Virus record (IMG/VR): IMGVR_UViG_3300010365_001574
Source of the DNA: an uncultured virus (IMG/VR IMGVR_UViG_3300010365_001574)
Lineage: Duplodnaviria > Heunggongvirae > Uroviricota > Caudoviricetes
DNA: 64,000 bases
Strand: one strand, 5' to 3'
Below, piece by piece: positions 23,899-63,656 of the stretch; position 1 is the stretch's first letter; the number at the start of each line of letters is the position of its first letter. The position numbers were made by a program, and so were the translations under genes. The notes beneath the pieces were generated by a model. That model was not told the DNA's origin and did not search any database. It worked only from the letters and a program-made list of their open reading frames with translations.

Positions 23899-23923
23899 AA
23901 CATATATATTAATTATATAAAAC

Positions 23924-23953
23924 AAAAAAAGACTCCTAAAAGGAGTCTTTTTT
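23924..23953 (-). terminator. Terminator after the major capsid gene
   Basis: aaaaaaaGACTCCTaaaAGGAGTCtttttt. Confidence 0.85.
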
Positions 23954-25633: not shown

Positions 25634-25712
25634 AATAATTTTCTTTTTTTTTATTTTTTTTATGTAATCTATAAATGTATATATATCCTTGTTTTTTCAC
25701 TTTTTTTGAAGT

Positions 25713-25727
25713 GTGGATTTTTTATAG
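25713..25727 (-). promoter_or_regulatory. 15-bp element upstream of the capsid promoter (copy 1)
   Basis: GTGGATTTTTTATAG (+ strand), identical at 28015-28029. Confidence 0.55.
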
Positions 25728-25728
25728 A

Positions 25729-27948: not shown

Positions 27949-28014
27949 TTAAAATAATTATTTTTTGTAGTTCTGTGGTATATATAAACATTGTTAATTA
28001 TCTATTTTTGAGAA

Positions 28015-28029
28015 GTGGATTTTTTATAG
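28015..28029 (-). promoter_or_regulatory. 15-bp element upstream of the protease/scaffold promoter (copy 2)
   Basis: Identical to 25713-25727, with similar spacing to TATATA. Confidence 0.55.
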
Positions 28030-28123
28030 TATCTTTGTAAAGTCTTATGAAATAAGGTAGTTTTAATTTTGGTAAAAAGGGGGATTGATATTTTAATAAA
28101 TACTTAAAAATAAGTGGTTTTTT

Positions 28124-28513
28124 ATGATCCTTTCAAGAGAGATAAATATTAAAATAATTGAGTCAAATTACAACTATTATGATTATTTAGGATATGATGT
28201 ATATATAGGAGAAGAAATTGTGATACCAGTTGATCTGTTACCAAAAGGTTCTCATTATAAAATTAAATGTAAATGTGATGTTTGTGGGGTTGAGAAAGAT
28301 GTAATCTATAAGAATTACCTTAAATATGATAATGTTTGGGGAGAGTATTATTGTAGAAAGTGTTCAGAGAGTAAGAGGAAGGAAACACTTAGAAAAAACT
28401 TTGGAGTAGATTATCCTATTCAGAATAAAGGAGTTTTAGATAAGATGAAAAAAACATTAATTAAAAAATATGGAGTGGATAATATCTCCAAAAAAATAAA
28501 AAAGAATGAATAA
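28124..28513 (+). CDS. Zn-ribbon plus KYGVDN-repeat DNA-binding module of endonuclease type, no nuclease domain
   Basis: CKCDVCG, CRKC, KNFGVDYP, KKYGVDNISK. Confidence 0.6.
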   Translation: MILSREINIKIIESNYNYYDYLGYDVYIGEEIVIPVDLLPKGSHYKIKCKCDVCGVEKDVIYKNYLKYDNVWGEYYCRKCSESKRKETLRKNFGVDYPIQNKGVLDKMKKTLIKKYGVDNISKKIKKNE

Positions 28514-30029
28514 ATTAAAAGAAGATAGTATCTATGATGGTACTATAGAATTCTCAAATAGTGGAAATGCATCCATTAGAATAGAGGATAAAAGTATTTT
28601 TATATTTAAAAAAAATACATTGAATGCACTTAACTCAGATAAAGTTAAAGTTAAGATTATTATTAAGAATAATAAAGTAGAAGCGGAAGTAATAGAAGTA
28701 TTAGAAAGATTCCGTACACAATTTGTTGGTAAAGTACACTTAAACAAAGACCTAACCTTTGTAATACCAGACAGTCAAAAAATTCCAGTAGATTTTTATA
28801 TTAAAGGAAACCATGATGCAAAGAATGACCAAAAAGTTTTGGTTGAGTTTTCAAACTGGGAACCTGGTTCTAAATCACCTAAAGGTAAAATTATTGAAAT
28901 CTTAGGAGAATCTGGAGATAACAATACCGAAATGAACTCAATTATGTATGAATATGGATTACCTAACAGTTTCCCTCTAATGGTTGAAGCTGATGCAGAA
29001 TTAATACCTTTTGAAATATCAGAAGAAGAAATTGAAAAAAGAAGAGATATGAGAGCAATTACAACCTTTACCATTGACCCTGTTGATGCTAAAGATTTTG
29101 ATGATGCTCTTTCAGTAAATATTTTAGATAATGATACTGTTGAAGTTGGTATTCATATTGCCGATGTATCTCACTATGTTAAAGAAGGAACTGATTTAGA
29201 TGATGAAGCAATTAGTAGAGCAACATCTGTTTACTTAGTTGATAGATGTGTACCAATGTTACCTGAGAGATTGAGTAATGGTGTATGTTCATTAAGACCT
29301 AATGAAGATAAACTTTGTTTCTCAGTTGTAGTTACTTTAAATAAAGAAGGAGAAGTATTGAATAAATGGTTTGGTAAAACTATTATACATTCAGATAGAA
29401 GATACTCTTATGAAGAAGCTCAAGAAATAATTGAAGGTAAAGATGGAGATTTCAAAACTGAAATACTTCTATTAGATACAACTGCTAAAAAAATGAGAAA
29501 GCAAAGAATAGAAGATGGTTCTATTGAAATGGGTGGAATTGAAGTAAGATTTCAATTGGATCCAACTACAAAGAAACCAACTGGTGTTTATTTCAAAACT
29601 CAGAAAGATGCAAATAAACTTATTGAAGAATATATGTTACTTGCTAATAAATTAGTTGCTAAAGAATTAAAGACTAAAATTAAGTTTTGTGTAAATAGAT
29701 CTCATGGTTTACCAAGTATAGAAAAAATAATGGAAATAAAAAATCTATGTGATAAATTAGGATATAATTTTGATACAAATGAAGATAATATAAAATCAAG
29801 TATTAATAGTCTGTTAAAAGATGTTAAAGGAAATCCTGAGGAAAATCTAATTAATACTTTAATAGTTAGAAGTCAACAAAAAGCATATTACACAACTGAT
29901 AATGTTGGACACTATGGACTTGGATTTGAGGACTATTGCCACTTTACAAGTTGTATCAGAAGGTATGCTGATATATTAGTGCACAGACTATTGACATTAT
30001 CATTAGACAATGGTGGTTATACAAAATAA
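28506..30029 (+). CDS. rnr: Ribonuclease R, N-terminal part (CSD + RNB)
   Basis: TIDPVDAKDFDDALS catalytic motif, VGIHIADVS, PMLPERLS, HFTSCIRRYAD; ends before the S1 domain. Confidence 0.92.
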   Translation: MNKLKEDSIYDGTIEFSNSGNASIRIEDKSIFIFKKNTLNALNSDKVKVKIIIKNNKVEAEVIEVLERFRTQFVGKVHLNKDLTFVIPDSQKIPVDFYIKGNHDAKNDQKVLVEFSNWEPGSKSPKGKIIEILGESGDNNTEMNSIMYEYGLPNSFPLMVEADAELIPFEISEEEIEKRRDMRAITTFTIDPVDAKDFDDALSVNILDNDTVEVGIHIADVSHYVKEGTDLDDEAISRATSVYLVDRCVPMLPERLSNGVCSLRPNEDKLCFSVVVTLNKEGEVLNKWFGKTIIHSDRRYSYEEAQEIIEGKDGDFKTEILLLDTTAKKMRKQRIEDGSIEMGGIEVRFQLDPTTKKPTGVYFKTQKDANKLIEEYMLLANKLVAKELKTKIKFCVNRSHGLPSIEKIMEIKNLCDKLGYNFDTNEDNIKSSINSLLKDVKGNPEENLINTLIVRSQQKAYYTTDNVGHYGLGFEDYCHFTSCIRRYADILVHRLLTLSLDNGGYTK

Positions 30030-30956
30030 CTTATCTTCTATAACTTCATCATATCTTATTATTAAAAGTTGAATATTATTATTTTTACAATATTCAACTT
30101 TTATTTTATCTTTTATCCTTTGATTTATTAAAGTATTCATACCACCAAAATGTTCTATTGGTTCATAATGTTGAATACCATTATATTCTATACATAGATT
30201 ATATTTAGGTAGATAAAAATCATATCTCAGTTCTTTGATATTTTTACAATCACTAAAAACATATTCTCTCTTATATTCAATATTATTATCATCCAAATAT
30301 TTTGATATTAATTTTTCTCCAATTGATTCCTTACATATTGAACATCCTTGTTTTCTATTAGTATGATGTTCAGGACTAATTTCAAATACTCCGTGTTTTT
30401 TACATATAATTTTTACTTTCATCAAACTATTTTTATATTCTGTTACTAGTGAATAGTCATATTTATCACCATGTATATCCTTACATCTTTGTAAAAATGT
30501 ATTTAATCCCATTCTTCTGTTATCCAATCTACATTTCATACAACCTTGACCACTTAGATGTGCTGATGGTCTTTGTAAAAATACACCATGTTCTTTACAA
30601 ATTATTTTAATTTTATGTGTGGTGTTTTTATATTCAACCATAGAATAATCATATTTATCATTATGTTTTTCTGAACATTTTATTAAAAAGTCAAATACTA
30701 TATTATTAAATATCTCTTTATTATATTTTATTTTATCTTCTATTTTATTATATTTTTCTCTATTAATTCCACATTTAGTACATCCATATTTACTACTAAG
30801 ATGATTACCAGGTTTTTGTTCAAAATTACCATGTGTTGGACAAATTATAATTACCTTAATATCATTGTTAATATAATTAACTTTTGAATAGTCATACTTA
30901 TCACCATATTTTATTTTTGATTTTTCTATAAATTCTTCTGTTGTTAATTTCTTCAT
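30003..30956 (-). CDS. Homing endonuclease, CxxHG repeats plus Vsr-like domain
   Basis: IICKEHGVF repeats; LRYDFYLP..IEYNGIQHY. Confidence 0.8.
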   Translation of the reverse strand: MKKLTTEEFIEKSKIKYGDKYDYSKVNYINNDIKVIIICPTHGNFEQKPGNHLSSKYGCTKCGINREKYNKIEDKIKYNKEIFNNIVFDFLIKCSEKHNDKYDYSMVEYKNTTHKIKIICKEHGVFLQRPSAHLSGQGCMKCRLDNRRMGLNTFLQRCKDIHGDKYDYSLVTEYKNSLMKVKIICKKHGVFEISPEHHTNRKQGCSICKESIGEKLISKYLDDNNIEYKREYVFSDCKNIKELRYDFYLPKYNLCIEYNGIQHYEPIEHFGGMNTLINQRIKDKIKVEYCKNNNIQLLIIRYDEVIEDKLFCITTIV

Positions 30957-30958
30957 GA

Positions 30959-31108
30959 TTATTTTTCTAATTTTTCTCTTATAATTTCAGAAACTTTAAC
31001 CACTCTTCCTTCTTTTACACTTTTATTTATTGCAAGGTCTACAAGTTCTTGGTATAATTCTTTTTTAATTCTAATTGTAACTGATCTATCCTTATTGTCT
31101 TTTGTCAT
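30959..31108 (-). CDS. 49-aa RHH-like protein (not in ORF track)
   Basis: MTKDNKDRSVTIRIKKELYQELVDLAINKSVKEGRVVKVSEIIREKLEK. Confidence 0.7.
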   Translation of the reverse strand: MTKDNKDRSVTIRIKKELYQELVDLAINKSVKEGRVVKVSEIIREKLEK

Positions 31109-31122
31109 ATTATTTTATTTAT

Positions 31123-31174
31123 TTTTTGTCTTACATTATATATTAAAACTTTATCTCTTCCTTTCATATAATTA
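31123..31174. repeat. 52-bp direct repeat, copy 1
   Basis: tttttgtcttacattatatattaaaactttatctcttcctttcatataatta, identical at 32809-32860. Confidence 0.9.
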
Positions 31175-31239
31175 TTATGAAAAATAATTAGGTGGTAATA
31201 TTTATTTATACTACTTTTACAAAAATAAATTAAAAATAT

Positions 31240-31743
31240 ATGAGAAAATTATTATTAGGAGCTCTACTACTATTGAGCATGGTAAGTTTTGCACAAACAA
31301 AGATTATTTATTCAAAAGATGTAATGACTGATAAAGAATCGGTTAGTATTTCTGATGTATTGATGTGTAGTGAAGATGGTAAAAAAGGATTTATTGTAAT
31401 GGTTTCATTAAATTTGAAAGATGGTATAGTAAATTACAATGGGTTGATTGTAAAATCTGCTTATGTTGGTGGGTGTCATGAAAATGATACCTTAATTTTA
31501 TTATTTGATGATGATACTAAAGTAACACTTTCTATGTGGAACAAATTCAATTGTGATGGTAGTAGTTATTTTGATTTTTATAAAAAAGAATTTGAATCAT
31601 TCTCAACTAAAAAAGTTAAAGCAATTAGGTTGTCAAATGGAAGAACATATGATAGTTACACCTATGTATTAAAACCATCTGAACAAACTTATTTTATTGA
31701 TGTAGCCGCATTGATTAAGGCTAATGTATATTCAACAAAATAA
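31240..31743 (+). CDS. Secreted protein with Bacteroidota-type signal peptide
   Basis: MRKLLLGALLLLSMVSFA-Q cleavage pattern. Confidence 0.75.
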   Translation: MRKLLLGALLLLSMVSFAQTKIIYSKDVMTDKESVSISDVLMCSEDGKKGFIVMVSLNLKDGIVNYNGLIVKSAYVGGCHENDTLILLFDDDTKVTLSMWNKFNCDGSSYFDFYKKEFESFSTKKVKAIRLSNGRTYDSYTYVLKPSEQTYFIDVAALIKANVYSTK

Positions 31744-31746
31744 AAT

Positions 31747-31777
31747 AAAAAAAGAGACTTATAAAGTCTCTTTTTTT
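31747..31777. terminator. Bidirectional terminator
   Basis: aaaaaaaGAGACTTataAAGTCTCttttttt; near-identical to 2492-2521. Confidence 0.8.
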
Positions 31778-32649
31778 ATTTTATTCAATATATTTTCATC
31801 ATATTTAATTGATATTAATTTAATATTATTACTCTCACAATAATCCTTCTTTATTCTATCCTTTATTATTTGTTTTTTTAATTCTTTAATACCACCAAAA
31901 ACATCGACTTCTTCATAATGTTGTCTACCATTATACTCAATACACATATCATAATCAGGTAAATAAAAATCAAATGGCAGTCTTCTTTTATATTTACAAT
32001 CATCAAATGTCTTTTGACCAATATATTGTATATTATTAGATATAAGATAATTTCTTATTATTTTCTCTCCTTTACTTTCTCTACACACTGGACAACCCTG
32101 ACCTAATAAATGTAAATCAATCTTTTGAGTAAAAAGACCATGTTCTTTACAAATAATATCAACCTTCTCTTTATTATTGTTATATTCTTTTACTAGTTTA
32201 TAATCATATTTATTATTATGAATAACATTTGACTTTCTAATGAAATTATCCAAACCCAACTTTCTACAATCATTACATCCTCTTTTTTGATATAAGTGGT
32301 TTTTAATACTGGTTGTAAAAACACCATGTTCTTTACAAATAACATCTATTTTATCCTTTACACTTTTATAATCAGAAGAAACTATTGAGTAATCATATTT
32401 ACCATTATGTAATTGAAAACATCTTTCTAATAAAATATCAATACCAATTTTCTTATCATCAATTCTACATTTATCACACCCTTGACCATTCAAATGGTTG
32501 TTTGGATTTATAGAATACTTTCCATGTTTTTGACAAATTATATCTACATTGGTTCTCATATTCTCATAAATTGTTATTGAATAATTATATTTATCCTTAT
32601 GTTTAAGTAAACATTTATCAATAAATATCTCTGTTGTTAATTTTTTCAC
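31759..32649 (-). CDS. Homing endonuclease, paralog of 30003-30956
   Basis: GTG start, MKKLTTE; ICKEHG repeats; LPFDFYLP..IEYNGRQHY. Confidence 0.8.
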   Translation of the reverse strand: MKKLTTEIFIDKCLLKHKDKYNYSITIYENMRTNVDIICQKHGKYSINPNNHLNGQGCDKCRIDDKKIGIDILLERCFQLHNGKYDYSIVSSDYKSVKDKIDVICKEHGVFTTSIKNHLYQKRGCNDCRKLGLDNFIRKSNVIHNNKYDYKLVKEYNNNKEKVDIICKEHGLFTQKIDLHLLGQGCPVCRESKGEKIIRNYLISNNIQYIGQKTFDDCKYKRRLPFDFYLPDYDMCIEYNGRQHYEEVDVFGGIKELKKQIIKDRIKKDYCESNNIKLISIKYDENILNKIKKETL

Positions 32650-32650
32650 A

Positions 32651-32794
32651 TTATTTTACTAATTTTTCTCTTATTATATCTGATACTTTAATTATTTTAT
32701 TTTCTATAACTGACTTATCAATTGCCTCTTTAACTATTTTATCATAAACTTCCTGTTCTATTCTTATTGTAATAGATCTACCTTTTTTAATCAT
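32651..32794 (-). CDS. 47-aa RHH-like protein (not in ORF track), paralog of 30959-31108
   Basis: MIKKGRSITIRIEQEVYDKIVKEAIDKSVIENKIIKVSDIIREKLVK. Confidence 0.7.
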   Translation of the reverse strand: MIKKGRSITIRIEQEVYDKIVKEAIDKSVIENKIIKVSDIIREKLVK

Positions 32795-32808
32795 TTTTGT
32801 ATTTATTA

Positions 32809-32860
32809 TTTTTGTCTTACATTATATATTAAAACTTTATCTCTTCCTTTCATATAATTA
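32809..32860. repeat. 52-bp direct repeat, copy 2
   Basis: Identical to 31123-31174; ends 2 nt before the ATG of the rnr C-terminal part. Confidence 0.9.
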
Positions 32861-32862
32861 GT

Positions 32863-33222
32863 ATGAAAATTGATAGAAATAAAATTAATGAAATGTGTAA
32901 ACACATTTCAAGTAGAGAAGTATTAGCAAAAAAAGCAGAACGTGATTCCATACGTTATAAACAAATTGAATACTTAGAAGATAAAATTGGACAAGTATTT
33001 GATGGAATTGTATCAGGAGTAACCGATTGGGGTATGTATGTTGAACTTATTGAAAGTAAATGTGAAGGTATGGTTAGATATAACAATAACTACACAGTTG
33101 ATACAGATAATTATATTGTATTTCCTAAAATGGGAGGTTCAATAAGATTAGGTGATGAAGTTAAAGTAACAGTTAAAGCAATTGACTTAGACAGAAAACA
33201 AATAGACTTTGAGATATTCTAA
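32863..33222 (+). CDS. rnr: Ribonuclease R, C-terminal part (end of RNB + S1 domain)
   Basis: CKHISSREVLAKKAERDSIRYKQIEYL..FDGIVSGVTDWGMYVEL..CEGMV..LGDEVKV..QIDF. Confidence 0.9.
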   Translation: MKIDRNKINEMCKHISSREVLAKKAERDSIRYKQIEYLEDKIGQVFDGIVSGVTDWGMYVELIESKCEGMVRYNNNYTVDTDNYIVFPKMGGSIRLGDEVKVTVKAIDLDRKQIDFEIF

Positions 33223-33644
33223 TGGAATTAAATGTTAAACTAAATAATAATACTTTAGACCAGTATGATAAAGCACTTTCCACTTATAATGAGTGGAAAT
33301 CTTTTTATAGGGATATTAAACTATCTACCTTACTTGAAGGTAAGAGAGTTCAGTTTGATATTGATAATATACAAAAGATTGGAATGGTTCATGATTTTGT
33401 AACTCTTGAGAATCCTGGTAAATTACAAACAATGGCCTTTAGTATAAGTGGTATGACTTTCATTATAAAAGATAATAATATTGAAAAGTTAACATTAGAA
33501 GCAGAATTTTTAGAAACTGATTGTGGAAAAAAATTAAAAGAACTTTATGATGCAGGTATAGAACTTGAAGTCAGACAAGTATTCACTGATAGAAATGTTT
33601 CATTCACAATAGACTTACCAGAAACTAAAAATCCTTTCAATTGA
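33222..33644 (+). CDS. Degenerate prohead-protease-like protein with RDIKLSTLL motif
   Basis: FLETDCGKKLKELYDAGIELEV resembles LLSTYWGKEAKALVNDGCPVFV of 25729-27948; catalytic His and Ser motifs absent. Confidence 0.55.
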   Translation: MELNVKLNNNTLDQYDKALSTYNEWKSFYRDIKLSTLLEGKRVQFDIDNIQKIGMVHDFVTLENPGKLQTMAFSISGMTFIIKDNNIEKLTLEAEFLETDCGKKLKELYDAGIELEVRQVFTDRNVSFTIDLPETKNPFN

Positions 33645-33653
33645 AAGGATTTT
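33627..33653. terminator. Bidirectional terminator
   Basis: aaaaaTCCTTTCAATTGAAAGGAtttt. Confidence 0.7.
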
Positions 33654-33660
33654 ATTTTTA

Positions 33661-35415
33661 CTAGAACTCAAACTCGCCTCCACCCTCTGGAGCAGGAGGT
33701 GCTTCTGGTGCTGCTTGAGGTGCTACTTGACCACCACCTTGTGCTGGTGCTTCTGGTGTTGCTTGAGGAGCTGCTTGTCCACCACCAGGCATTTCACCAC
33801 TTTCACCGGAGCCACCAAATCCTCCACCACCTCCACCACCTTCTGATGGAGCACCAGGTTCACCAGTAGCACCTGCTGCTTGATTAGCAACATCCATTGC
33901 CCAGTATTTAGCATTCTCAGCTTTTTCTTCTGGAGTAAGTTTGAATACATTATCCATAATCCATTCAATGTGAAAGTATGGTTTCTCACCATTCATAACA
34001 CCAAGTAAAGTACCAACTATACCTGCTTTCTTTTCTAAATTGTTTATCTTTTTCCATTCTTCAAATACTTGATTTGTAAAGAATGTAATATCAACAGCAT
34101 TTGTAAAAAACTCATCATCCTTTAACTCAGGAAACTCAATTAACATTTGTAATCTTAATGGTTTAACAATTAATTCTTTAAAGTTAGATCTTAATCTACT
34201 AATAAAGTTATGGAACTTAATCTCATCTCTTGTCATTTCAGCAGCATCAGTAACTAAGTTACCACCACCATTATCACTTTCAAATCTTGACATTGGTATT
34301 TTAGATGCTCTCTTTAATGCTTTAAAGAACCAATCCAACATTGTATCATCATTTAAGTTATGACCTTGTGGAGATTCTAATGTCATATTTGGAGTACCTG
34401 CATCTCCCTCAGGAAACCAGATTTGTTTGTTATAAGGTAAGTGTTTAGAACCATTAATAGTTAAAGTTCCCAATGAGTCATCCCATTCTACTTCTTCTGA
34501 ATAATCATGTATTAATTGTCCTATTTGTTCTTCTGCTCTTTGTCTTGACATACCTTTAATTGGAATAGTAAACTTCTGATAAATAGTTGCATTAATAATA
34601 TTAAACATTATTCTTGTTTGTTGTAATATTTTTAATTGATTGTAAGGTTTAATCAAACCCTCTACATAAGATGTCTCTGAAAATTCATTTTGAGTTGAAT
34701 ATGAAACATAAACTATCTGTGAATCTAAAAATATTCTTCTTAATTGTGGATCCTCAGGAAACTGAATCCATAAGTGACCAATTGAAGGTTCATAAGCAGG
34801 AACTAAAGTTTCTGGTCTTAATCTATTGAAACTAATAATATTCTTCTTTTTATCATCAAATATAATCTCAAGTGCAACATAACCATCAACTAAAAAGTCT
34901 TTCATCATATTCCAAGCAGTAATGTTGTCAGAGAATCCAAACTTATTATAAATAGATTCAAAGTACTCTTGATACTTATCTTGTATCTCTGTTGAATATT
35001 CTATAGGTAAAGCCACTGGTGAACAGAAATCTCTCTCATCATTATAAACTATACACTCATCAGCAATTGAGCTCACAAAGTCTCTAATCTCATCTTTGAT
35101 AGAGTATTCTCTTAAAATTCTTCTCTTATCAGCATAAGCTTTGTCTAAATAAGGTATTGATTTTCTGTTTAATACAGATGCTACAGCTCGTTGCGAGAAG
35201 AAGTCATACATTGAATTTCCACGAGCAGCATATGGATCCTCATTAATACCAATACCCACTTGATTTCTAATAATCATATCATCATAGTTCATTCCATATG
35301 ATGATAAAGTTCTTAATATCCTATTAAATAGTCCTTTATTTTCTACTGCAGATTGTCCTGCAGCACCAAAGTTGGCAGTATTGCTATTAGTGTCGAAATT
35401 ATTGTAACTACTCAT
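33661..35415 (-). CDS. gp20: Portal protein (T4 gp20-like) with Gly/Pro/Ala-rich tail
   Basis: FLVDG, LIKPYNQL, ASKIPMSRF, EMTRDEIKFHNFISRLRSNF. Confidence 0.9.
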   Translation of the reverse strand: MSSYNNFDTNSNTANFGAAGQSAVENKGLFNRILRTLSSYGMNYDDMIIRNQVGIGINEDPYAARGNSMYDFFSQRAVASVLNRKSIPYLDKAYADKRRILREYSIKDEIRDFVSSIADECIVYNDERDFCSPVALPIEYSTEIQDKYQEYFESIYNKFGFSDNITAWNMMKDFLVDGYVALEIIFDDKKKNIISFNRLRPETLVPAYEPSIGHLWIQFPEDPQLRRIFLDSQIVYVSYSTQNEFSETSYVEGLIKPYNQLKILQQTRIMFNIINATIYQKFTIPIKGMSRQRAEEQIGQLIHDYSEEVEWDDSLGTLTINGSKHLPYNKQIWFPEGDAGTPNMTLESPQGHNLNDDTMLDWFFKALKRASKIPMSRFESDNGGGNLVTDAAEMTRDEIKFHNFISRLRSNFKELIVKPLRLQMLIEFPELKDDEFFTNAVDITFFTNQVFEEWKKINNLEKKAGIVGTLLGVMNGEKPYFHIEWIMDNVFKLTPEEKAENAKYWAMDVANQAAGATGEPGAPSEGGGGGGGFGGSGESGEMPGGGQAAPQATPEAPAQGGGQVAPQAAPEAPPAPEGGGEFEF

Positions 35416-37834: not shown

Positions 37835-37996
37835 TTATTTACTACTTTTATCAAAATTATCTAATAAGTTTTCTATCTTTTTCTTTCTTATAACATTCTT
37901 TGGAAAAATAGACATAGTATTTGTTATAGTGGCAGCACCAAATCCAGGATTTGCCACTATATCAAATGTTCTAATATTATATAGAGTGTAGTCCAT
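37835..37996 (-). CDS. 53-aa protein: prohead-protease-like peptide plus RKKKIENLL motif (not in ORF track)
   Basis: MDYTLYNIRTFDIVANPGFGAATITNTMSIFPKNVIRKKKIENLLDNFDKSSK. Confidence 0.65.
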   Translation of the reverse strand: MDYTLYNIRTFDIVANPGFGAATITNTMSIFPKNVIRKKKIENLLDNFDKSSK

Positions 37997-38342
37997 TTCC
38001 ATCATTTGCACTATTTATTGAGATAAGTTTAATTTGATGTTCATTATCACCTTTCTTTTTATAAAGGTCATTCCATCCTTTTGCCAATCCTCTTTTGAAT
38101 ATCTCTGTAAAGTAAGCAAAGGCATTAATTGATTTGTCTTCATTGAAATTATACCAGTTTTGAAACATATCCAATAGACCACTTTGGTAGCAATCTAATT
38201 TGTCATCATTTGACCAGTATCTCATTTTTTTGATTGTTTTCTTTGCTAAAAGTTCTAGCATCTTCTCAGCATTTCTTGTTAGTCTTCCCTGTGCTTTTGA
38301 CACTATGATCTCTATGTAGAGATCTTTATTGTTTAAATAAAT
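37977..38342 (-). CDS. gp55: Late sigma factor (T4 gp55-like), probable non-AUG start
   Basis: YLNNKDLYIEIIVSK..RYW..D..FN..KSINAFAYFTEI. The conserved YxNN segment lies upstream of the GTG at 38303 and no in-frame ATG exists. Confidence 0.75.
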   Translation of the reverse strand: MYLNNKDLYIEIIVSKAQGRLTRNAEKMLELLAKKTIKKMRYWSNDDKLDCYQSGLLDMFQNWYNFNEDKSINAFAYFTEIFKRGLAKGWNDLYKKKGDNEHQIKLISINSANDGNGLHSI

Positions 38343-56790: not shown

Positions 56791-57467
56791 TGATAACTAT
56801 ACTTTGGTGTACTATTAGACCAACACAATTTATGAATTTTCACCAGAAATGGTTAGAAAAAGCAGATAATAAAGAAAATATAAGAACTATTGTAGCAGTA
56901 AACTGGGAAGAGCATAAAGAGTTTCTTAAAGACTATCCAGTTGAAGTAGTTGTTGTAAATACTGATAAAATAGGAGTTTGTTATCCATCATATATTCTAA
57001 GTTCTACTTTAGAATGTGAAAATGACTCAGATGTTGTAGTTTTTGCATCAGATGACTTTTTACCACCTGATAGTTGGGACACTTATCTTATAAATAAGTT
57101 TAAAGAACAAGATGGATGTTTATTTGTACCAGATGGTTACCAATTAGAAAACTCTTCTAATATGATAGATCCTTGTATAACAATACCTCTTATGAGTTAT
57201 GGTTGTTTGAAAAAAATAAATAAAGTAATATATCATCCAGCATATAATCATATGTTCTCTGATTGTGAACTATTCTTAAATTGTAAAGAATTAGGATTAA
57301 TAATAAATGGATATCATGATGGAGTTCAATTCTTACATGTTCATCACTCAGCTGGATTAAGACAACCTGACCAAGCAGACCAACAATATCATTTAAAATG
57401 GCAAGTTGACCAAGAAACTTGGAATAAAAGGAAATTACTTCCTTTAGAAGAAAGATTAAAAGTATAA
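56790..57467 (+). CDS. GT2-like glycosyltransferase
   Basis: FASDDFLPP..WD..YHPAYNHMFSDCEL..HVHH. Confidence 0.7.
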   Translation: MITILWCTIRPTQFMNFHQKWLEKADNKENIRTIVAVNWEEHKEFLKDYPVEVVVVNTDKIGVCYPSYILSSTLECENDSDVVVFASDDFLPPDSWDTYLINKFKEQDGCLFVPDGYQLENSSNMIDPCITIPLMSYGCLKKINKVIYHPAYNHMFSDCELFLNCKELGLIINGYHDGVQFLHVHHSAGLRQPDQADQQYHLKWQVDQETWNKRKLLPLEERLKV

Positions 57468-58222
57468 TGAAAACAAATATAGAAAAAATCTGTAACTATA
57501 CAGAAGATACTAAAAATCCTTATCAACCTACTATAGCTCTATCTTATATTGATATGGTAACAGAAGATGAAGATGCTCATCAAAGAGAAATAAAAAGACA
57601 AAATAGAGAATTGGCTATTGATATTATTTTAGATGAGAAAGATGAAAGTGAATGGGAAAATAGAAATAATAATATTGTATTTGGTTTTGATTCAGGTTAT
57701 ACATCTACAATAAGTCCTAAAATATTTACAGTAAATACAATAGCAAAAAACTTTACTTCTTTTAAAGATTTAGAATATGATGTTTTTACTAAATTAGAAA
57801 GTTTAACTAAGAATAAACCTGTTAGTAACAATTCAATGGTAAATACCTTAGATATTAATATATCAAATATAAGTTCATCCTATGATTTTGAAGCATTACA
57901 AAGAAGAGTTGTGTCAAAAATTATGGCTTGTACAAATATTGTTGCAATGGAAAATAGAAAAGGACCAGCAAATACAATAATTGTAGGTATAAATGTTGCT
58001 AAGTATATAGAAACAAGAGATATGAACATATCAAATATGTTTGTTGGTTTAGATATAGTAATAACACCTTATATTGATAAAGATAAGATAATAGTTATGA
58101 GAGTGGAAAACTCTATAGGAACTGGCCTCAATGTTATAGTAAAACCAAATGACAATAAGTATTATATGGTAGAAACACCACAATCTTGGGAAAAGACCAT
58201 GAAATGGTTCTGGATAAAATAA
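57467..58222 (+). CDS. Truncated major-capsid-protein paralog
   Basis: ALQRRVVSKIMACTNIVAMENRKGPANTIIV vs capsid AIQRKLITRIAHASNYIATEGRVGPAQYLIT, plus other collinear blocks. Confidence 0.75.
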   Translation: MKTNIEKICNYTEDTKNPYQPTIALSYIDMVTEDEDAHQREIKRQNRELAIDIILDEKDESEWENRNNNIVFGFDSGYTSTISPKIFTVNTIAKNFTSFKDLEYDVFTKLESLTKNKPVSNNSMVNTLDINISNISSSYDFEALQRRVVSKIMACTNIVAMENRKGPANTIIVGINVAKYIETRDMNISNMFVGLDIVITPYIDKDKIIVMRVENSIGTGLNVIVKPNDNKYYMVETPQSWEKTMKWFWIK

Positions 58223-58223
58223 A

Positions 58224-58249
58224 TAAAACCACTCATTGAGTGGTTTTTT
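58224..58249. terminator. Bidirectional terminator
   Basis: aaaaCCACTCAtTGAGTGGtttttt. Confidence 0.75.
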
Positions 58250-58784
58250 AGTTTCTTGATTGAACTCTTATTTTATCATACTTTAACATTAACTTATACA
58301 TACTATCCCATTCTTCATTAGGATTCTCAACTAACTTTTCATTCCATTGGTTGTTATTGAAATATTCAACAATCATACCAACTCTAAAATCCTCTTTTTG
58401 TTTTGGTACCCAATATCTTTTTTCTTCAAAGAATGAAAATGACATTCCTTTGTAAATATATGAACTATCACAATTTTCATTATATTTACTCACTCCTAAT
58501 ATTTTCTCAGTTCCTGTATTAAATATCTTTCTTGGTTTATTCTCACCTTTATATTTTATAATTGCAGATTGAACATTAAACTTATCAAGTAGAAATATAA
58601 TATCAGTTCTCAATGAATCACTATCAATAGTACCATATGCCAAAATTGAATCATTGAATACACCTGATTCATAATTTTTCATTTCTAATATTTGATAATC
58701 TCTTGAGTATAATACAGATAAAATATCATCCAATTTATCAGATGATATTAATAAATATGATATTTGAGGATTTTCTAAATTCAT
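58248..58784 (-). CDS. Hypothetical protein
   Basis: ORF track. Confidence 0.7.
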   Translation of the reverse strand: MNLENPQISYLLISSDKLDDILSVLYSRDYQILEMKNYESGVFNDSILAYGTIDSDSLRTDIIFLLDKFNVQSAIIKYKGENKPRKIFNTGTEKILGVSKYNENCDSSYIYKGMSFSFFEEKRYWVPKQKEDFRVGMIVEYFNNNQWNEKLVENPNEEWDSMYKLMLKYDKIRVQSRN

Positions 58785-58800
58785 AGACTATATATTAAAT

Positions 58801-58953
58801 TTATTTAGTAGTAACTCTAAATATCTCTAATAGTTTACCCATACCAATTTGTTTTATTTCTGCAAAATATTCAATTGCTAATTCCTTTGATGGAAAATTT
58901 CCTTTTTTAATAACTTCATCAGAAGTCTTTGTTTTTAGATAAAATGTTTTCAT
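58801..58953 (-). CDS. 50-aa hypothetical protein (not in ORF track)
   Basis: MKTFYLKTKTSDEVIKKGNFPSKELAIEYFAEIKQIGMGKLLEIFRVTTK after AATATATA. Confidence 0.55.
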   Translation of the reverse strand: MKTFYLKTKTSDEVIKKGNFPSKELAIEYFAEIKQIGMGKLLEIFRVTTK

Positions 58954-59030
58954 ACTCTATATATATTTTTTATCAATCTTCTTTTTAGAGAGGTTGGTTA
59001 TTTTTATATATAAATAAAAGTAAAAGTTAT

Positions 59031-59741
59031 ATGAAAAATTGTTCAAAATGTAATATTGAAAAGGAATTAGAATTTTTTCCAAAGGATAAAACTAAAAAAT
59101 GTGGTTATAGTAGTTGTTGTAAAGATTGTAAGAAAAAGTACAGAGAAGATAATAAAGAAATGTTAAAAGAGACTTATAAAAATTACAGAGATAATAATAA
59201 AGAGAATATTAAAAATTATGTAATAAATAATTCAGAAAAGATTAAAGAGTATCAAAAAGAATATAGAAAAAATAACAAAGAGACCAATTCAATTAATCAA
59301 AAAGAATGGTACTATAATAATATTGACAAAGCAAGAAAAGTAAGAAGAGAATATCAAAAAAATAATAAAGAGAAAAGAAACAAAAAAATAAAGAAAAGAA
59401 GACTTGAAGATAATAAATTTAGATTAGTTTCTATAATAAGAACATTGATTTCCAATTCATTTATAAGAAATGGATTTAGTAAAAATTCTAAAACATTTCA
59501 AATATTGGGATGTTCATTTGAGGAATTCAAATTACACTTAGAAAGTAAATTTGAACCTTGGATGAATTGGGAAAATCAAGGATTGTATAATGGTGATTTT
59601 AATTATGGATGGGACATTGATCACATGATACCATCATCAACTGCAAAATGTAAAGATGATGTTATTATTTTAAATCACTTTACTAATTTACAACCATTAT
59701 GTTCAAAAATAAATAGAGATATTAAGAGGGATAATTATTGA
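59031..59741 (+). CDS. HNH homing endonuclease with N-terminal Zn finger
   Basis: CSKC..CKDC; ILGCS..WDIDHMIP..HFTNLQPLCSKIN. Confidence 0.85.
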   Translation: MKNCSKCNIEKELEFFPKDKTKKCGYSSCCKDCKKKYREDNKEMLKETYKNYRDNNKENIKNYVINNSEKIKEYQKEYRKNNKETNSINQKEWYYNNIDKARKVRREYQKNNKEKRNKKIKKRRLEDNKFRLVSIIRTLISNSFIRNGFSKNSKTFQILGCSFEEFKLHLESKFEPWMNWENQGLYNGDFNYGWDIDHMIPSSTAKCKDDVIILNHFTNLQPLCSKINRDIKRDNY

Positions 59742-60960
59742 ATAACTCCTTTAACTTTTTGTTAAATATACTTTTGACAATTTCTCTATATTTCACAGGA
59801 AATACAATTGAATCATGTATTGTTATTATTTTTATATCTGGATAAATATTAATTATAGTTTTTATTATATTATTGAATATCAAATTTGATTCCATTTTTT
59901 GCAAATCATATGCTAATATTTTATAATTTGAAAACTCTTTTTTATACAATTTTATAAAATTATGTATAGTTGGAAAATTGCTTTCAAATAAAATGTCACA
60001 TTTATTATTACTTCTATTCCTACCAAATAGAACTTTATATGTCATCTTTTTAATTGTATTTTTATCAAATTTTGATTTACTCATCATATATTCATAATAT
60101 CCACCACTTTCAACCAAATATGAAAACAACTCAAACTCATTTTGGTCAACCCATTTTGTCCCACTATCTCTTATTATCTTTGACAGAAATAATGGTTGAC
60201 TATTAGAAATATCCAATTCACAAGTTTCCTCACCATCAATCATTAGACAATTCTTTCTAATAAATGACTTCAATATTGTGTAATTTGTATGCATTCTTCC
60301 ATAAGCATCAAAGTGATAAAAGATATGTTTATTATTTATACATTCAACAGAATAAACATTTCTATTATAAATATCATAATCTTGATACTTCAATGAGTCT
60401 AAGAAAAATATTGCTCTATCAAACTCAATATTAACACTAAATAAGTCAGAAACTAACTTTTCTTTAACATCAATATCAATTAATGATTCTTTCTCACCAA
60501 TAGAACTTCCAACCATTTCTACAAACTTACCTTTATACTTTCTCAAAAGTACTTTGTCATAGTTCTTATATCTTTTAATTTTAGATTTAAAAATATCATC
60601 ATCTAATGAATATATTCTTGATGTAACACCTGTTTGATATTGTGTCATAAGTGCAATTATATTATTATCAATAAGATAATTTATATAATAGTTGTATAAG
60701 TAACCATACTTATCTTTTAACACAGTGGCATTAATTGCAAATCTGTTTTCTTTCTTAAAATAATACTTTAAAATTAGACTATGTATTATATCAATTAGAT
60801 AATCTGTCTTTAGTTTTGTCTCTTTATAATTTATAGTTTTTATATTCTCAATATGATATAAACATTCTGGTAAAAATTGAAGTGTAAAAGTTTTATCTTC
60901 TACTCTCTTAGATACTATTTGGCTTGATATTTTATTAGTGATTTTGTTCTCAATATACAT
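59722..60960 (-). CDS. Compact PolA/T7-RNAP-superfamily polymerase-like protein
   Basis: DAYGRMH, ELDISNSQP (motif A), KKMTYKVLFG (motif B), LQKMES, TIHDSI (motif C). Confidence 0.7.
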   Translation of the reverse strand: MYIENKITNKISSQIVSKRVEDKTFTLQFLPECLYHIENIKTINYKETKLKTDYLIDIIHSLILKYYFKKENRFAINATVLKDKYGYLYNYYINYLIDNNIIALMTQYQTGVTSRIYSLDDDIFKSKIKRYKNYDKVLLRKYKGKFVEMVGSSIGEKESLIDIDVKEKLVSDLFSVNIEFDRAIFFLDSLKYQDYDIYNRNVYSVECINNKHIFYHFDAYGRMHTNYTILKSFIRKNCLMIDGEETCELDISNSQPLFLSKIIRDSGTKWVDQNEFELFSYLVESGGYYEYMMSKSKFDKNTIKKMTYKVLFGRNRSNNKCDILFESNFPTIHNFIKLYKKEFSNYKILAYDLQKMESNLIFNNIIKTIINIYPDIKIITIHDSIVFPVKYREIVKSIFNKKLKELFNNYPS

Positions 60961-60976
60961 AGTTTTTATATGAAAA

Positions 60977-61186
60977 TTAAGCCATATGTTTCAAGATTTT
61001 TTCTATTTTTTTCTTTCTCATTTCTCTTCTCAATTCATCACTTAATTCTTTAACTAATTTATCTTCCACATCACTATTAATATACACATTTAAGTCTGTT
61101 GATAATTCAGTTGTCCACTCACTTCTAAGTGGTCTTGATTCTGACTTAACAATAACTTCTTTCATACTTATATTTATCTCATTCAT
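60977..61186 (-). CDS. 69-aa protein resembling an internal gp23 segment plus RKKKIEKIL motif
   Basis: IVKSESRPLRSEWTTELSTDLNVYINSDVEDKLVKELSDEL resembles the T4-type A.sR.Lka.ys.ElaQDL...hg.Da..eL...la.Ei segment. Confidence 0.65.
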   Translation of the reverse strand: MNEINISMKEVIVKSESRPLRSEWTTELSTDLNVYINSDVEDKLVKELSDELRREMRKKKIEKILKHMA

Positions 61187-61240
61187 AAATTTTATTTATC
61201 TCATTCATAAAATTTATATCAAAAATTAAATATATAGTTT

Positions 61241-61573
61241 ATGAGAGAATATTTATTTGTATATGGTCAGTTTAGAGATACTGCTAAAAAGTTATTACAG
61301 GATCCTATTTATTGTGGAAAAGCAACAATTAATGGTAAAATATACAAAGTCAATGATTTTTATCCAGGGTTTGTTGATGGTAAAGGTAAAGTATTAGGTG
61401 ATGTTTATTTAATCAATCCTGAATTGTTTCCAGTACTTGATGAGTTTGAAGGTGATGAGTATATAAGAACCAAAGTAAACACATCAAGTGATATTGAATG
61501 TTGGGTATATAAGTATATACATGATGTTAAAAAATTTGAAGAAGTTAAAGGTGGTGACTGGTGGCTTAGATAA
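61241..61573 (+). CDS. Gamma-glutamylcyclotransferase (AIG2-like)
   Basis: LFVYG, YPG, VLGDVY, LDEFEG, GDW. Confidence 0.85.
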   Translation: MREYLFVYGQFRDTAKKLLQDPIYCGKATINGKIYKVNDFYPGFVDGKGKVLGDVYLINPELFPVLDEFEGDEYIRTKVNTSSDIECWVYKYIHDVKKFEEVKGGDWWLR

Positions 61574-61602
61574 AAAAAACCTACTTATAAAGTAGGTTTT
61601 TT
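61572..61602. terminator. Bidirectional terminator
   Basis: aaaaaaaaCCTACTTataAAGTAGGttttt. Confidence 0.75.
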
Positions 61603-62919
61603 AGTTTGGTTTAATGGTTCAATTGGTAGTTTACCACCTTTTTCACCTTTTTTCTTTTTATTTTCAACTCCTTTTTCAAATTCTGAATAAACATCAGGAT
61701 AAACTTGTCCTTCTGAGTCAGTATCATACTTAATATCAAAGAAATCCTCAAAATCAAGTAATCCTGCTCTTGTCAATTCTATCTCCTGCATTTTACCCAT
61801 ATAATCATTAACATGATTATCAATTGCATCAACAAATACATTAAATAGTTTAACTGTATTCTCTGTAAATACTCCAATTGGTTTTTTCTTTCTTCTGTTA
61901 AATGAACCTAATATAACTTTGAAGATATATTCAAGTTTATCACTCTCATCTATGTATTCTTTTGTTAATTTATTGTTAATTAATTCTGTATTTATTTTGA
62001 ACTTATCTTTATCAAAGAACTCAGGAACTATAAAATCAAAGTCAAGTAAATCAGATTTAACTTCTGAAATATAAATATTAAATAATTTACATATCAAGTA
62101 AATATAAATCTCATCTTTCTTATCACCTTTAAGTTTTACTTGTTCTAAATCAACTGACTGACAGAAATTAAGGAAGTTAAGTAATATCAAAGTGTATATC
62201 TCAACAAACTCAGTATCATTATTCTCACTTAATCTTCTATATAATGGATTTAATAATTCAAATGAAGTATCATTTGATTTACTTCTAATTATTAACTTTT
62301 CAATATTTTTTTGAAATTCATCCTCCATTAAAAATGAGTTTTGTAACATAGGATTCAATATCTTATAGAAGAAGAATGTAAATGACTTTTCTCCAAAGAT
62401 ATATTCTAAATCATCTTCACCAGTATTGATAAAGTATTTAATAGCTTCAACCATTTTATCAGTAAGTTTTCCCTTGAATACAACTGGAATAACATCAACA
62501 TCAAACAATCTAGCAAATTCTTCTAATTCCTCTAATACAAATTCATACTTACCAGATTTATTAATAGATGTTAGAACTAATTTATTTTTAGGAACTCTAT
62601 TATATTCAATATTTGCTGGTTGTTCATCAGGAAAATATTCAAAACAAAAAGACCACTTTCTATTAAGTAAACTTTTTACTCTACCATCCAAATCATTAAA
62701 ATAATTTATTGCAGGATTATAATAGTTCTGCATTGCTAAGTCAATCATATTAATAGGTTCTGCAGATAATGACTTTGGTTTTATTATAAACTCTTTACCA
62801 TTCCAACTAACCCATATTTTTGAACCCTGTATATCCTCAAGAACAATAATCTCATTGTTAAATAATTCATTTAGTAATTCAGTGTCTTGATTATTGTTTA
62901 ATTTTACTAAATTTGACAT
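61585..62919 (-). CDS. RNA-ligase (Rnl2-like) fold protein lacking the catalytic lysines
   Basis: VLEDIQGS (vs EKxDGS), FCFEY, IPVVFKG, IEKLIIR. Confidence 0.5.
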   Translation of the reverse strand: MSNLVKLNNNQDTELLNELFNNEIIVLEDIQGSKIWVSWNGKEFIIKPKSLSAEPINMIDLAMQNYYNPAINYFNDLDGRVKSLLNRKWSFCFEYFPDEQPANIEYNRVPKNKLVLTSINKSGKYEFVLEELEEFARLFDVDVIPVVFKGKLTDKMVEAIKYFINTGEDDLEYIFGEKSFTFFFYKILNPMLQNSFLMEDEFQKNIEKLIIRSKSNDTSFELLNPLYRRLSENNDTEFVEIYTLILLNFLNFCQSVDLEQVKLKGDKKDEIYIYLICKLFNIYISEVKSDLLDFDFIVPEFFDKDKFKINTELINNKLTKEYIDESDKLEYIFKVILGSFNRRKKKPIGVFTENTVKLFNVFVDAIDNHVNDYMGKMQEIELTRAGLLDFEDFFDIKYDTDSEGQVYPDVYSEFEKGVENKKKKGEKGGKLPIEPLNQTKKPTL

Positions 62920-63656
62920 TCTATATTATCTTTTTTTATATCCCTATTTATTTTACTACAAAGAGGTTGTAAATTAGTATAGTGATTCAATTTAAGAACT
63001 TCATCCTCTGTTTTTGCAATTGATATAGGAATTATATGGTCAATATCCCAACCATAGTTTAATTCACCATTATATAATCCATAATTTTCAAAAGTCATCC
63101 AATCTTCAAACTTAGACTCTAAATATGATTTGAACTCTTCAAAGGAACATCCCAATATTTCTATGGTATTTGATTTTTTTCTAAATTTTCTTTCCACTAT
63201 TGATCTTCTAATAGAAGATTTAATATTTTCAGTTATTGCAAATAAAGGATCATTTATCCTCTTATTTTTGGACCAATTTCTTCTATATTCATTTACTAAA
63301 TCTTTATTCTCTAAGTTCCAAATTTTAGCAGTCTCTATCTTACGTTCTTTATTTTCATAATACCATATTTTTGTTCTGTTTGATACACTTTCACTATTTT
63401 CAGAATACCAGCTTTTATAATTACTTCTTATAATTTCTTTATTTGTTTCATAGTAAACCTTTCTCTTATCTTTATTACTATCATTATACTTTTTTTGTAT
63501 AATTTTTATTTTATCTTTATTATTTTCACTATACTCATATAGATATTTTTTCTTACATTCCTTACATTGGTTTATATGACCATCTTTACAACGACTACTT
63601 TTACCAAAAAAGGACAAATCTTTTATAATTTTACAAACTATACATTTTTTACTCAT
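62907..63656 (-). CDS. HNH homing endonuclease, paralog of 59031-59741
   Basis: CIVC..CKEC; ILGCS..WDIDHIIP..HYTNLQPLCSKINRDIK. Confidence 0.85.
   Translation of the reverse strand: MSKKCIVCKIIKDLSFFGKSSRCKDGHINQCKECKKKYLYEYSENNKDKIKIIQKKYNDSNKDKRKVYYETNKEIIRSNYKSWYSENSESVSNRTKIWYYENKERKIETAKIWNLENKDLVNEYRRNWSKNKRINDPLFAITENIKSSIRRSIVERKFRKKSNTIEILGCSFEEFKSYLESKFEDWMTFENYGLYNGELNYGWDIDHIIPISIAKTEDEVLKLNHYTNLQPLCSKINRDIKKDNIECQI

Follow-up and report, generated by a model that had tools for sequence, protein, structure and literature searches.

A stand-alone small protein homologous to a segment of T4-type major capsid proteins in uncultured huge phages

Capsid proteins set the size of phage heads and are frequent triggers of bacterial anti-phage immunity. 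What use may a phage make of an isolated piece of such a protein? The question is raised by a 69-aa ORF (mini-gp23; 60977..61186, minus strand), which runs from ATG to TAA as a stand-alone gene in the DNA of an uncultured virus. The window analyzed is a stretch of 64,000 nucleotides, and its G+C content varies from 22 to 34% over 2-kb segments, being 23–29% in most. Homing-endonuclease genes are numerous in it, and it also hosts a clamp-loader-like AAA+ gene, a thymidylate synthase gene and a gene of the RNase II family. An earlier, sequence-only reading quoted the 69-aa peptide exactly, viewed it as a segment of a T4-type gp23 more canonical than the corresponding part of the capsid protein encoded by the same phage, and proposed that it derives from, or is aimed at, a different capsid lineage.

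Homology of mini-gp23 to T4-type major capsid proteins

Mini-gp23 scores 29.1 bits (E 8.9e-7) against the Pfam Gp23 profile (PF07068), above the curated gathering cut-off of 24.4 bits, and the proposed origin from a gp23 segment is in this respect confirmed. The similarity is that of a homologue, not of a shell subunit. Residues 1–65 align to positions 131–195 of the 376 of the profile, and the complete HK97 fold is absent. PHROG phrog_138, annotated as 'major head protein', was matched with E 1.1e-7. A profile made from 36 family members, run against PDB sequences, retrieved chains of T4 gp23 (E 1.3e-7 to 2e-7), and T4 gp24 at E 0.17 only. It aligns gap-free to residues 252–304 of T4 gp23, the same stretch that the sequence-only reading had given for T4. 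Among T4 head-region proteins, the family HMM gives 35.1 bits on gp23 and 15.6 bits on gp24, and finds nothing in gp68, gp22, gp21 and gp20. A likeness to T4 gp67 was considered and rejected (-1.5 bits); passages of two reviews make no mention of a gp67–gp23 likeness.

Three parts can be told apart in the peptide, by residue mapping and by the domain names used in passages of Fang et al. 2022 (PMC9546572) and of a 2023 review on the T4 head (PMC9958956). Residues ~8–24 correspond to the I-domain-linker/P-domain strand, residues 25–33 to the short acidic helix of the P domain, and residues 38–67 to the spine helix, with a basic tail in the case of the mini (RREMRKKKIEKILKH). In the family-profile alignment, residue n of mini-gp23 pairs with residue n+246 of T4 gp23. 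R18, R21, W24, E27, D31 and D39, all near-invariant in the family, correspond to R264, K267, Y270, E273, D277 and D285 of T4 gp23, respectively. [quoted passage not shown] Mini-gp23 thus reproduces the module of gp23 in which capsomer contacts and head-length mutations are found, together with the spine helix.

Close homologues of mini-gp23 retrieved by a word-indexed search number 31 and are 52–94% identical; 21 of them are exactly 69 aa long, and one resides on a 640-kb contig. An exhaustive HMMER search of 1.84 billion cluster representatives yielded 33 proteins at E<=1e-3. Most of these (25) measure 61–73 aa and align from the first residue, 6 measure 87–128 aa, and long capsid proteins account for only 2 of the 33. 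Stand-alone members of the family measure 53–73 aa, and are found in uncultured phages of ~0.45–0.64 Mb. A closer inspection of two uncultured huge-phage records revealed shortened minis, of 61 aa in LR745206 and of 53 aa in LR756502, next to a homologue of the gene that lies upstream of mini-gp23 in the window. In both the middle of the protein is deleted, and strand, acidic helix and tail are kept. The LR74 and LR75 records are, we assume, part of a published survey of huge phages. In 50,697 deposited phage records, the peptide matched only sequences inside full-length capsid genes (7 records, 35–38% identity); a megablast of positions 59000–63000 against phage records gave no match, and the P0049 scan of viral contigs returned 0 loci. 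DNA of the locus was found in wastewater, activated-sludge and freshwater runs from 12 studies, among which the source study may be included. The nearest record (G001) is approximately the same phage, and does not count as independent evidence. We conclude that mini-gp23 encodes a real stand-alone small protein, which originated by partial copying of a T4-type major capsid gene.

Canonical and resident capsid segments

The phage encodes a full-length major capsid protein of its own (23969..25633, minus strand, 554 aa; Pfam Gp23, E 2.5e-29), hereafter called resident. The counterpart of mini-gp23 in this protein is made by residues 305–364, which are the resident stretch quoted in the sequence-only reading; the resident protein scores 17.7 bits with the mini-family HMM. 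The resident-type capsid proteins of mini-bearing phages score 15.3–17.8 bits in 6 out of 6 cases, and three further resident-type proteins 15.8–17.5 bits. Capsid proteins of unrelated T4-like phages score 47.9–53.7 bits in 5 out of 5 cases (P0047, P0053, Microcystis phage Mel-JY01, Flavobacterium phage immuto, LR756508). The peptide is indeed closer to the canonical type than to the resident one, if these foreign proteins and T4 gp23 (35.1 bits) are set against the 15.3–17.8 bits of the latter. The resident segment is almost invariant in the clade, and whole resident capsid proteins are 75–81% identical across it.

A recent broken duplicate of the resident capsid gene was considered as a source of mini-gp23 and rejected, on the ground that BLASTP of the two proteins found nothing significant at the homologous place, and that HMM scores are 15–18 bits on resident-type and 47–54 bits on canonical proteins. 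A second, canonical gp23 or gp24 gene, of which the peptide could have been a broken copy, was looked for in G002, a 97%-complete relative, and the search with PF07068 revealed there one full-length Gp23-family gene, and no further canonical one.

A maximum likelihood tree of the segments was drawn from 68 columns, and its few columns and long branches call for a careful reading. Resident segments form one clade, set on a branch of 2.0 changes per column. The mini of locus L102 is the sister of the resident clade (99/86), and the five canonical capsid segments fall within the minis (97/84). Of the origin proposed by the sequence-only reading, the derivation from gp23 and the canonical character stand, the descent from a different capsid lineage does not stand as a conclusion. 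A history in which mini-gp23 would have kept the ancestral canonical state, and the resident segment would have diverged on a long branch, fits equally well. The L102 mini groups with the resident type.

The tail RKKxIxKI(F/L) was regarded at first sight as an added docking motif, by analogy with sliding-clamp-binding or targeting peptides. The idea was dropped, since in the alignment the tail falls on the latter half of the spine helix of the resident capsid protein (SKQIVAKIFE). Similar tails, defined by a loose pattern, are found in 4 of the 165 ORFs of the window, and may occur by chance in K/I/N-rich proteins. A complex of mini-gp23 (36-row alignment) and residues 87–554 of the resident capsid protein (8-row alignment) was predicted with a score of 0.00, which, in a run without controls, is evidence neither way.

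The mini-gp23 locus

The head genes of the window span 23969..35415, and include a protease-like gene (25729..27948) and the portal gene (33661..35415). Mini-gp23, at ~61 kb, is located outside this module, about 25 kb off the portal, protease and capsid genes. Its upstream neighbor is a 444-aa gene encoding a protein with an RNA-ligase fold (61585..62919, minus strand). A 412-aa gene (59722..60960, minus strand) lies directly downstream, after a 16-nt spacer. The co-oriented gene string continues with a 50-aa ORF (58801..58953, minus strand) and a 178-aa ORF (58248..58784, minus strand), whose order is conserved in relatives in which the locus extends that far. A 251-aa gene (57467..58222, plus strand) converges on the string. 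The order 444-aa gene, mini, 412-aa gene, 50-aa ORF, 178-aa ORF is found also in distant relatives, the minis of which are 38–45% identical; the 50-aa ORF was undetected in two distant loci, and a gene of 251–264 aa usually converges on the string. In the sub-clade of the window a GGACT/AIG2-like gamma-glutamyl cyclotransferase gene (61241..61573, plus strand; Pfam PF06094, E 7.5e-20) separates the 444-aa gene from the mini, as an insertion on the opposite strand. This gene is present in L004–L006 and L037–L039, and absent at this place in distant loci. Two HNH genes (59031..59741 and 62907..63656) are missing from relatives.

The region preceding mini-gp23 contains a 22-nt tandem duplication of the gene start (ATGAATGAGATAAATA...; 61187..61208, minus strand), which generates a 9-codon out-of-frame upstream ORF overlapping the mini-gp23 ATG. 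The duplication is strain-specific. The repeat unit is present in one copy only in relatives L004 and L006, and a contig from run X19 misses 22 nt at 61191. An AT-rich motif of the GATATAAA type (61209..61222, minus strand) is found directly 5' of the (first) start of the mini. A similar (C/G/A)ATATAA motif precedes the start of the 412-aa gene by 7–12 nt, both in the window and in 6 distant loci, and motifs of this kind are candidate, possible promoters or initiation signals. AT-rich motifs of two types recur 5' of genes.

Loci were anchored on the 444-aa gene (80 in total, near-duplicates included), and 77 of them have at least 230 nt of sequence downstream of it. Mini-gp23 is present in 46 of the 77 loci and absent in 31. 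The mini ATG overlaps the upstream stop as TAATG in 24 of the 46 mini-bearing loci; in the others, overlaps of 4 nt (3 loci) or 14 nt (1 locus), spacers of 21–31 nt (11 loci), or larger distances (7 loci) were observed. Distinct distant loci that were read, 7 in number, all show the TAATG overlap. Where the mini is absent, the 412-aa gene begins at 60 nt or less from the stop of the 444-aa gene, or overlaps it, in 16 of the 31 loci. Mini and 412-aa gene reside together, several kb away from the 444-aa gene, in the 95%-complete genome G007. In G008, which is 98% complete, the mini profile matches the capsid gene only, and in G002 a second mini-like paralogue follows an unrelated 483-aa gene. 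Mini-gp23 is an accessory gene, mobile within this phage group, and its most stable neighbor is the 412-aa gene.

Relatives of the 444-aa protein number 1857, none of them named, and are encoded in some cases by contigs of up to 641 kb. Its AF2 model is mediocre (pLDDT 62, pTM 0.45). The best 40 matches listed in a Foldseek search of PDB with this model are all RNA or DNA ligases, T4 Rnl1 and Rnl2 being in the lead (best match T4 Rnl1, 5tt6, E 3e-7), and Atlas clusters named RNA_ligase agree with a ligase fold. E28, D29, Q31, G32, S33 and K34 are invariant in the motif VLEDIQGSK of the protein, from which the motif-I lysine of T4 ligases is presumably absent. Atlas features link the 412-aa protein to a cluster with the automatic name 'DNA polymerase family A palm domain-containing' (score 0.97). 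The invariant residues of the protein (GR.HT, D.xNSQP, K...Y.V.FG, HDS) resemble what we take to be the motifs of family-A polymerases, and a palm-like domain of this family is possible, as a lead only; the family profile of the 412-aa protein retrieved nothing from PDB sequences. A match to family-B polymerases was noticed in a 508-aa ORF of G002, and was taken as a sign of a split polymerase. The 444-, 412-, 178-, 50- and 251-aa proteins match no family in Pfam, PHROGs and NCBIfam. In four RNA or RNA-labeled runs, contigs from RNA libraries partly cover the 178-aa, HNH, 412-aa, GGACT, 444-aa and 251-aa genes over the interval 57400–63000. None covers mini-gp23, a gap that proves nothing, as these are contigs only, and carry-over of DNA is possible.

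Mini-gp23 may serve the flanking enzymes as partner, regulator or leader ORF, its capsid origin being a matter of history only. In a variant of this explanation, translation of the mini merely couples the expression of the downstream gene. The TAATG overlap in 24 of 46 loci and the short spacers in 14 more speak for such a link, as does the fact that the 412-aa gene directly follows the mini in most loci, and moved together with it in G007. Loci that lack the mini have the two enzyme genes side by side, and the slot is thus conserved. The constraint on the mini is relaxed in close pairs (dN/dS 0.5–0.8), and the low divergence of its synonymous sites (0.15 in close pairs, 0.35–0.38 in the neighbor genes) could denote constraint at the RNA level. 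A pure spacer ORF, however, would not keep R, R/K, W, E, D and D down to 35–40% identity. Moreover, the enzymes work without the mini in many relatives, and the mini-like paralogue of G002 is found next to a gene of another kind. On balance, we regard a service to the enzymes as unlikely.

The 251-aa gene encodes a compact, yet complete, HK97-fold paralogue of the capsid protein. It is related by BLASTP to residues 402–442 of the resident capsid protein (E 2e-6), and its AF2 model (pLDDT 75, pTM 0.70) has 129 Foldseek matches in PDB at E<=1e-3, the top ones being HK97-fold capsids, T4 gp23* and HK97 among them. The model has its own long strand (residues 82–95) and following helix (residues 99–113). 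The notion that the mini is a piece split from this protein was rejected, on the basis of an hhalign probability of 8% and of the strand and helix that the paralogue has retained; the 251-aa paralogue is not the parent of mini-gp23. Relatives carry two compact HK97 paralogues, and three capsid-derived genes, mini included, are found within ~7 kb.

This clustering would suit an accessory morphogenetic factor of the giant head of the phage itself. Docked on the resident capsid protein, or on the 251-aa paralogues, at the borders of capsomers, such a factor would tune inter-capsomer angles or stability in the manner of a cement protein or size modulator, helpful though non-essential. The mini copies the very piece of gp23 in which head-length mutations map and capsomers touch, its tail aligns with the resident spine helix, and the L102 mini is resident-like. 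Sequences from different sub-clades are ~40% identical for both mini and 251-aa paralogue, 58% for the 412-aa and 72% for the 444-aa protein, which makes mini and paralogue diverge at similar rates. Yet the mini is missing from the 98%-complete relative and, at its usual place, from 31 of 77 loci, is not part of the block of head genes, and does not track the highly conserved resident segment in sequence. A function in the own head has, in our opinion, a rather low probability, equal to that given to a service to the enzymes.

The 45 intact loci and the window correspond to 33 distinct DNA sequences, and are not all independent. Of 46 loci only L111 is frameshifted; the other 45 have an open frame, which persists between sub-clades in which synonymous sites are saturated. 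Pairwise dN/dS values range from 0.49 to 0.80 among three close sequences, and are mostly 0.2–0.5, with one pair at 1.05, among distant ones. The corresponding values are ~0.1 for the 444-aa gene and ~0.2 for the 412-aa gene. Regional values, summed over 45 non-independent close pairs, are 0.57 (residues 1–35), 0.47 (residues 36–53) and 0.43 (residues 54–69). All these estimates are noisy, given a frame of 69 codons. Synonymous divergence in close pairs is lower in the mini than in its neighbors, as reported above. Mini-gp23 is a fast-evolving gene, probably under weak purifying selection, and the data suggest neither neutrality nor demonstrable positive selection.

These figures bear on a further explanation, namely that the mini is a decaying relic of an old partial duplication, devoid of function. 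High dN/dS values in close pairs (0.49–0.80), repeated losses, the internal deletions of the LR745206 and LR756502 minis and the frameshift in L111 are in line with decay, and T4 itself has annotated small ORFs, alt.-1 and alt.-2, that are old partial duplicates. A frame of 69 codons at 26% GC should however close fast, as ~0.09 stops per random codon are expected from base composition, and yet 45 of 46 copies are open, start and stop positions are conserved, and synonymous sites are saturated. The conserved columns are specific and match functional residues of gp23, and dN/dS is 0.2–0.5 in distant pairs. We hold a relic for improbable, more so than the two functions considered above.

A possible role in conflict, and known systems

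Among the explanations considered, the one ranked first is that mini-gp23 is a mimic of a capsid segment used in conflict, either for interference with other phages or as an immune decoy; we assign to it a probability of about 0.38. A role in the own head and a service to the enzymes follow on equal terms, a relic comes last, and the remainder is left to other explanations. The P-domain module, with the strand that comes after the insertion domain, a short acidic helix and the spine helix, is all that mini-gp23 retains. By mimicking this module, the protein would present the canonical surface of gp23 to a partner whose usual counterpart is a capsid protein. The partner would most likely be found outside the shell of the phage itself, because the sequence of the mini follows the canonical T4-type consensus rather than the capsid protein encoded in the same phage, and because the gene can be dispensed with and is patchily distributed. 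Candidates of a first type are the P domains of the capsid proteins of competing T4-like phages, the assembly of which would be disturbed. As a weapon, the mini might insert at the borders of rival capsomers, and derail head assembly or head length. A second candidate is a host immune sensor that recognizes the capsid protein, and that would be kept occupied by the mini. The own capsid protein, diverged in exactly this segment, would escape the effect.

The patchy presence of the gene (46 of 77 loci), its loss from a relative that is 98% complete, its relocation and its fast evolution are consistent with a role in conflict and do not prove it; the location outside the head module argues in its favor. 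Several observations point the other way. The dN/dS values are below 1, and with no excess of replacement changes there is no sign of an arms race. The mini is linked to the RNA-ligase-fold and 412-aa genes and not to known defense or exclusion genes, and its stable adjacency to the 412-aa gene could make the product of the latter the partner. A role within the phage itself, or gene conversion, would suit the resident-like L102 mini. The tail of the spine helix can be aligned to the resident capsid protein too, and the canonical residues could merely serve folding. Literature listings and abstracts, moreover, revealed no stand-alone capsid-fragment proteins, nor any precedent for capsid fragments acting as decoy or poison. 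It is doubtful, and less probable than a role in conflict as such, that huge phages encode a dedicated, fast-evolving capsid-segment mimic of 53–73 aa, used as weapon or shield, which the own capsid protein, diverged here, escapes.

The mini family is widespread, if one considers that the upstream neighbor alone has 1857 relatives. Mini-gp23 may be exploited as a ready-made probe of the way in which contacts between capsomers determine the geometry of very large heads, and of a possible use of structural-protein fragments by phages, as decoys or as poisons against rivals. Were it just an operon-linked peptide, it would still be a clear case of a structural-protein fragment recruited as a new small gene.

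The closest known relatives are the capsid proteins of the Gp23 family (PF07068; T4 gp23, PDB 6uzc, 7vs5, 5vf3), to which homology extends at gp23 residues 252–304. At conserved positions of the P-domain strand and short acidic helix, they and the mini have R, K, Y/W, E and D in common. In contrast to them, the mini lacks A domain, insertion domain, N-arm and C-terminal P-domain strands, has a basic tail on the spine-helix part, and is encoded apart from the head module. The Gol peptide of T4 gp23 (residues ~93–122), which triggers the Lit protease, has no separate gene. Gol is, like the mini, a short internal stretch of gp23, with an activity of its own in the conflict between phage and host. 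It corresponds to another segment, and triggers a defense, whereas blocking of a partner is proposed for the mini. T4 alt.-1 and alt.-2, described in record notes as old partial duplicates of a larger virion-protein gene, are small ORFs as well. They adjoin their parent and are not known as a wide conserved family, whereas a long distance and a dissimilar sequence set the mini apart from the capsid gene.

T4 gp24 also arose by duplication of a capsid gene, and the acidic helix of its P domain is conserved, as stated in passages of PMC9546572. Unlike the mini, gp24 is a complete HK97-fold shell subunit, and the mini profile scores 15.6 bits on it and 35.1 bits on gp23. The capsid-size redirectors CpmB and Rcm of SaPIs are products of satellites, and have been shown by experiment to bind the capsid protein (PMC12409344). 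They resemble scaffold, whereas the mini resembles the capsid protein. Like the mini as viewed here, CpmB and Rcm are small proteins resembling a piece of a morphogenetic protein; they compete at the capsid protein, alter assembly and interfere with a phage (PMC12409344).

Capsid-derived genes and mini-like tails

Compact paralogues of the capsid protein (about 246-269 aa), featuring a complete HK97 fold, occur in one or two copies in these huge phages, and are placed on the flanks of the gene string hosting the mini, the 69-aa stand-alone gp23-segment ORF (60977-61186, minus strand). Paralogues of this type reside at 57467-58222 (plus strand) in the window, at 2555-3295 in the related-phage locus L007, and at 75676-76029 in G002, a 97%-complete relative of 476 kb. 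The model of the window protein has a pLDDT of 75 and matches capsid proteins of HK97, T4 and T1. Vertex protein, decoration or other functions are candidate roles, any of which these paralogues may have.

In G002 a further paralogue resembling the mini, 75 aa long (L030 1991-2218; G002:297490-297717), consists of the spine-helix part only and a RRINSINKIF tail as in the mini; an unrelated 483-aa gene precedes it, and the two reading frames overlap at the start of the paralogue. Further stand-alone gp23-fragment proteins, measuring 120-125 aa, are the homology-search proteins P0049 and P0061 and the product of L136 3878-4255, in another related phage locus. These combine the mini segment with the conserved N-terminal gp23 motif VRR..IA.DLV.VQP, in permuted order, and bear similar F-K-[FY]-[FL]-R-G-like motifs at both termini. 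In L136 the fragment gene is followed by a 503-aa gene, by eye a glycosyltransferase-like candidate. Capsid-fragment genes may have more than one origin.

Tails similar to that of the mini end a few other small ORFs, at 37835-38011 (minus strand) in the window, L007 3279-3497 and L008 10222-10737, the tails being …IRKKKIENLLDNF, …KREFKLNKILK and …IRNKKIDDIFNK. A loose tail pattern matched 4 of the 165 window ORFs. Such tails could represent a common motif, or chance in K/I/N-rich proteins.

Start region, putative terminator and upstream motifs

The start region of the mini is tandemly duplicated (22 nt; 61187-61208, minus strand) in this strain and in the nearly identical phage G001 only. The duplication generates a 9-codon upstream ORF, which overlaps the true ATG of the mini; it is missing in relatives, as in a contig of the sequencing run X19 spanning the region. 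A perfect A-run/stem-loop/T-run (AAAAAACCTACTT..AAGTAGGTTTTTT; 61574-61604) separates the convergent GGACT and 444-aa genes and reaches into the 3' end of the 444-aa coding sequence; it has the appearance of a bidirectional terminator.

Two AT-rich motifs recur 5' of many window genes: TTAATATATA(C/G), often just 4-7 nt from the ATG, and (G/T)ATATAAAAA, found about 20-25 nt from it. These motifs may stand for different promoter classes. Shine-Dalgarno-like sequences are not evident upstream of window genes, and some starts may be leaderless.

Endonuclease, RNase and polymerase genes

Two HNH/endonuclease VII-like genes, at 59031-59741 (plus strand) and 62907-63656 (minus strand), are paralogues, and relatives lack them at these sites. 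Many additional homing-endonuclease genes (GIY-YIG, LAGLIDADG, HNH) mark the window; one, at 22636-23925, immediately follows the capsid gene and carries a fused NFACT-R RNA-binding domain. The head-gene region also encodes an RNase II/R-family exoribonuclease (28506-30029, plus strand), which has an RNB domain (E 5e-103) as well as cold-shock domains, and, in a gene of its own, an S1-domain protein (32863-33222, plus strand). In G002, a 508-aa ORF (L032 406-1932) matches family-B DNA polymerase and stops past the N-terminal portion of the polymerase domain; the polymerase of this phage may be split.

The 412-aa and 444-aa proteins

No family match was found for the 412-aa protein (59722-60960, minus strand). 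Its invariant residues (GR.HT, D.xNSQP, K...Y.V.FG, HDS) resemble family-A polymerase motifs, and Atlas features likewise point towards a family-A polymerase. The protein could be a minimal polymerase-like enzyme, joined to an N-terminal domain of unassigned type.

The 444-aa RNA-ligase-fold protein (61585-62919, minus strand) is strongly conserved (dN/dS about 0.1; 1857 relatives). Its motif-I region reads VLEDIQGSK, and lysine is apparently missing at what we take, from T4 Rnl1 and Rnl2, to be the catalytic position. The protein may be a non-catalytic member of the ligase fold. T4 rnlB, too, adjoins a capsid paralogue, gene 24.
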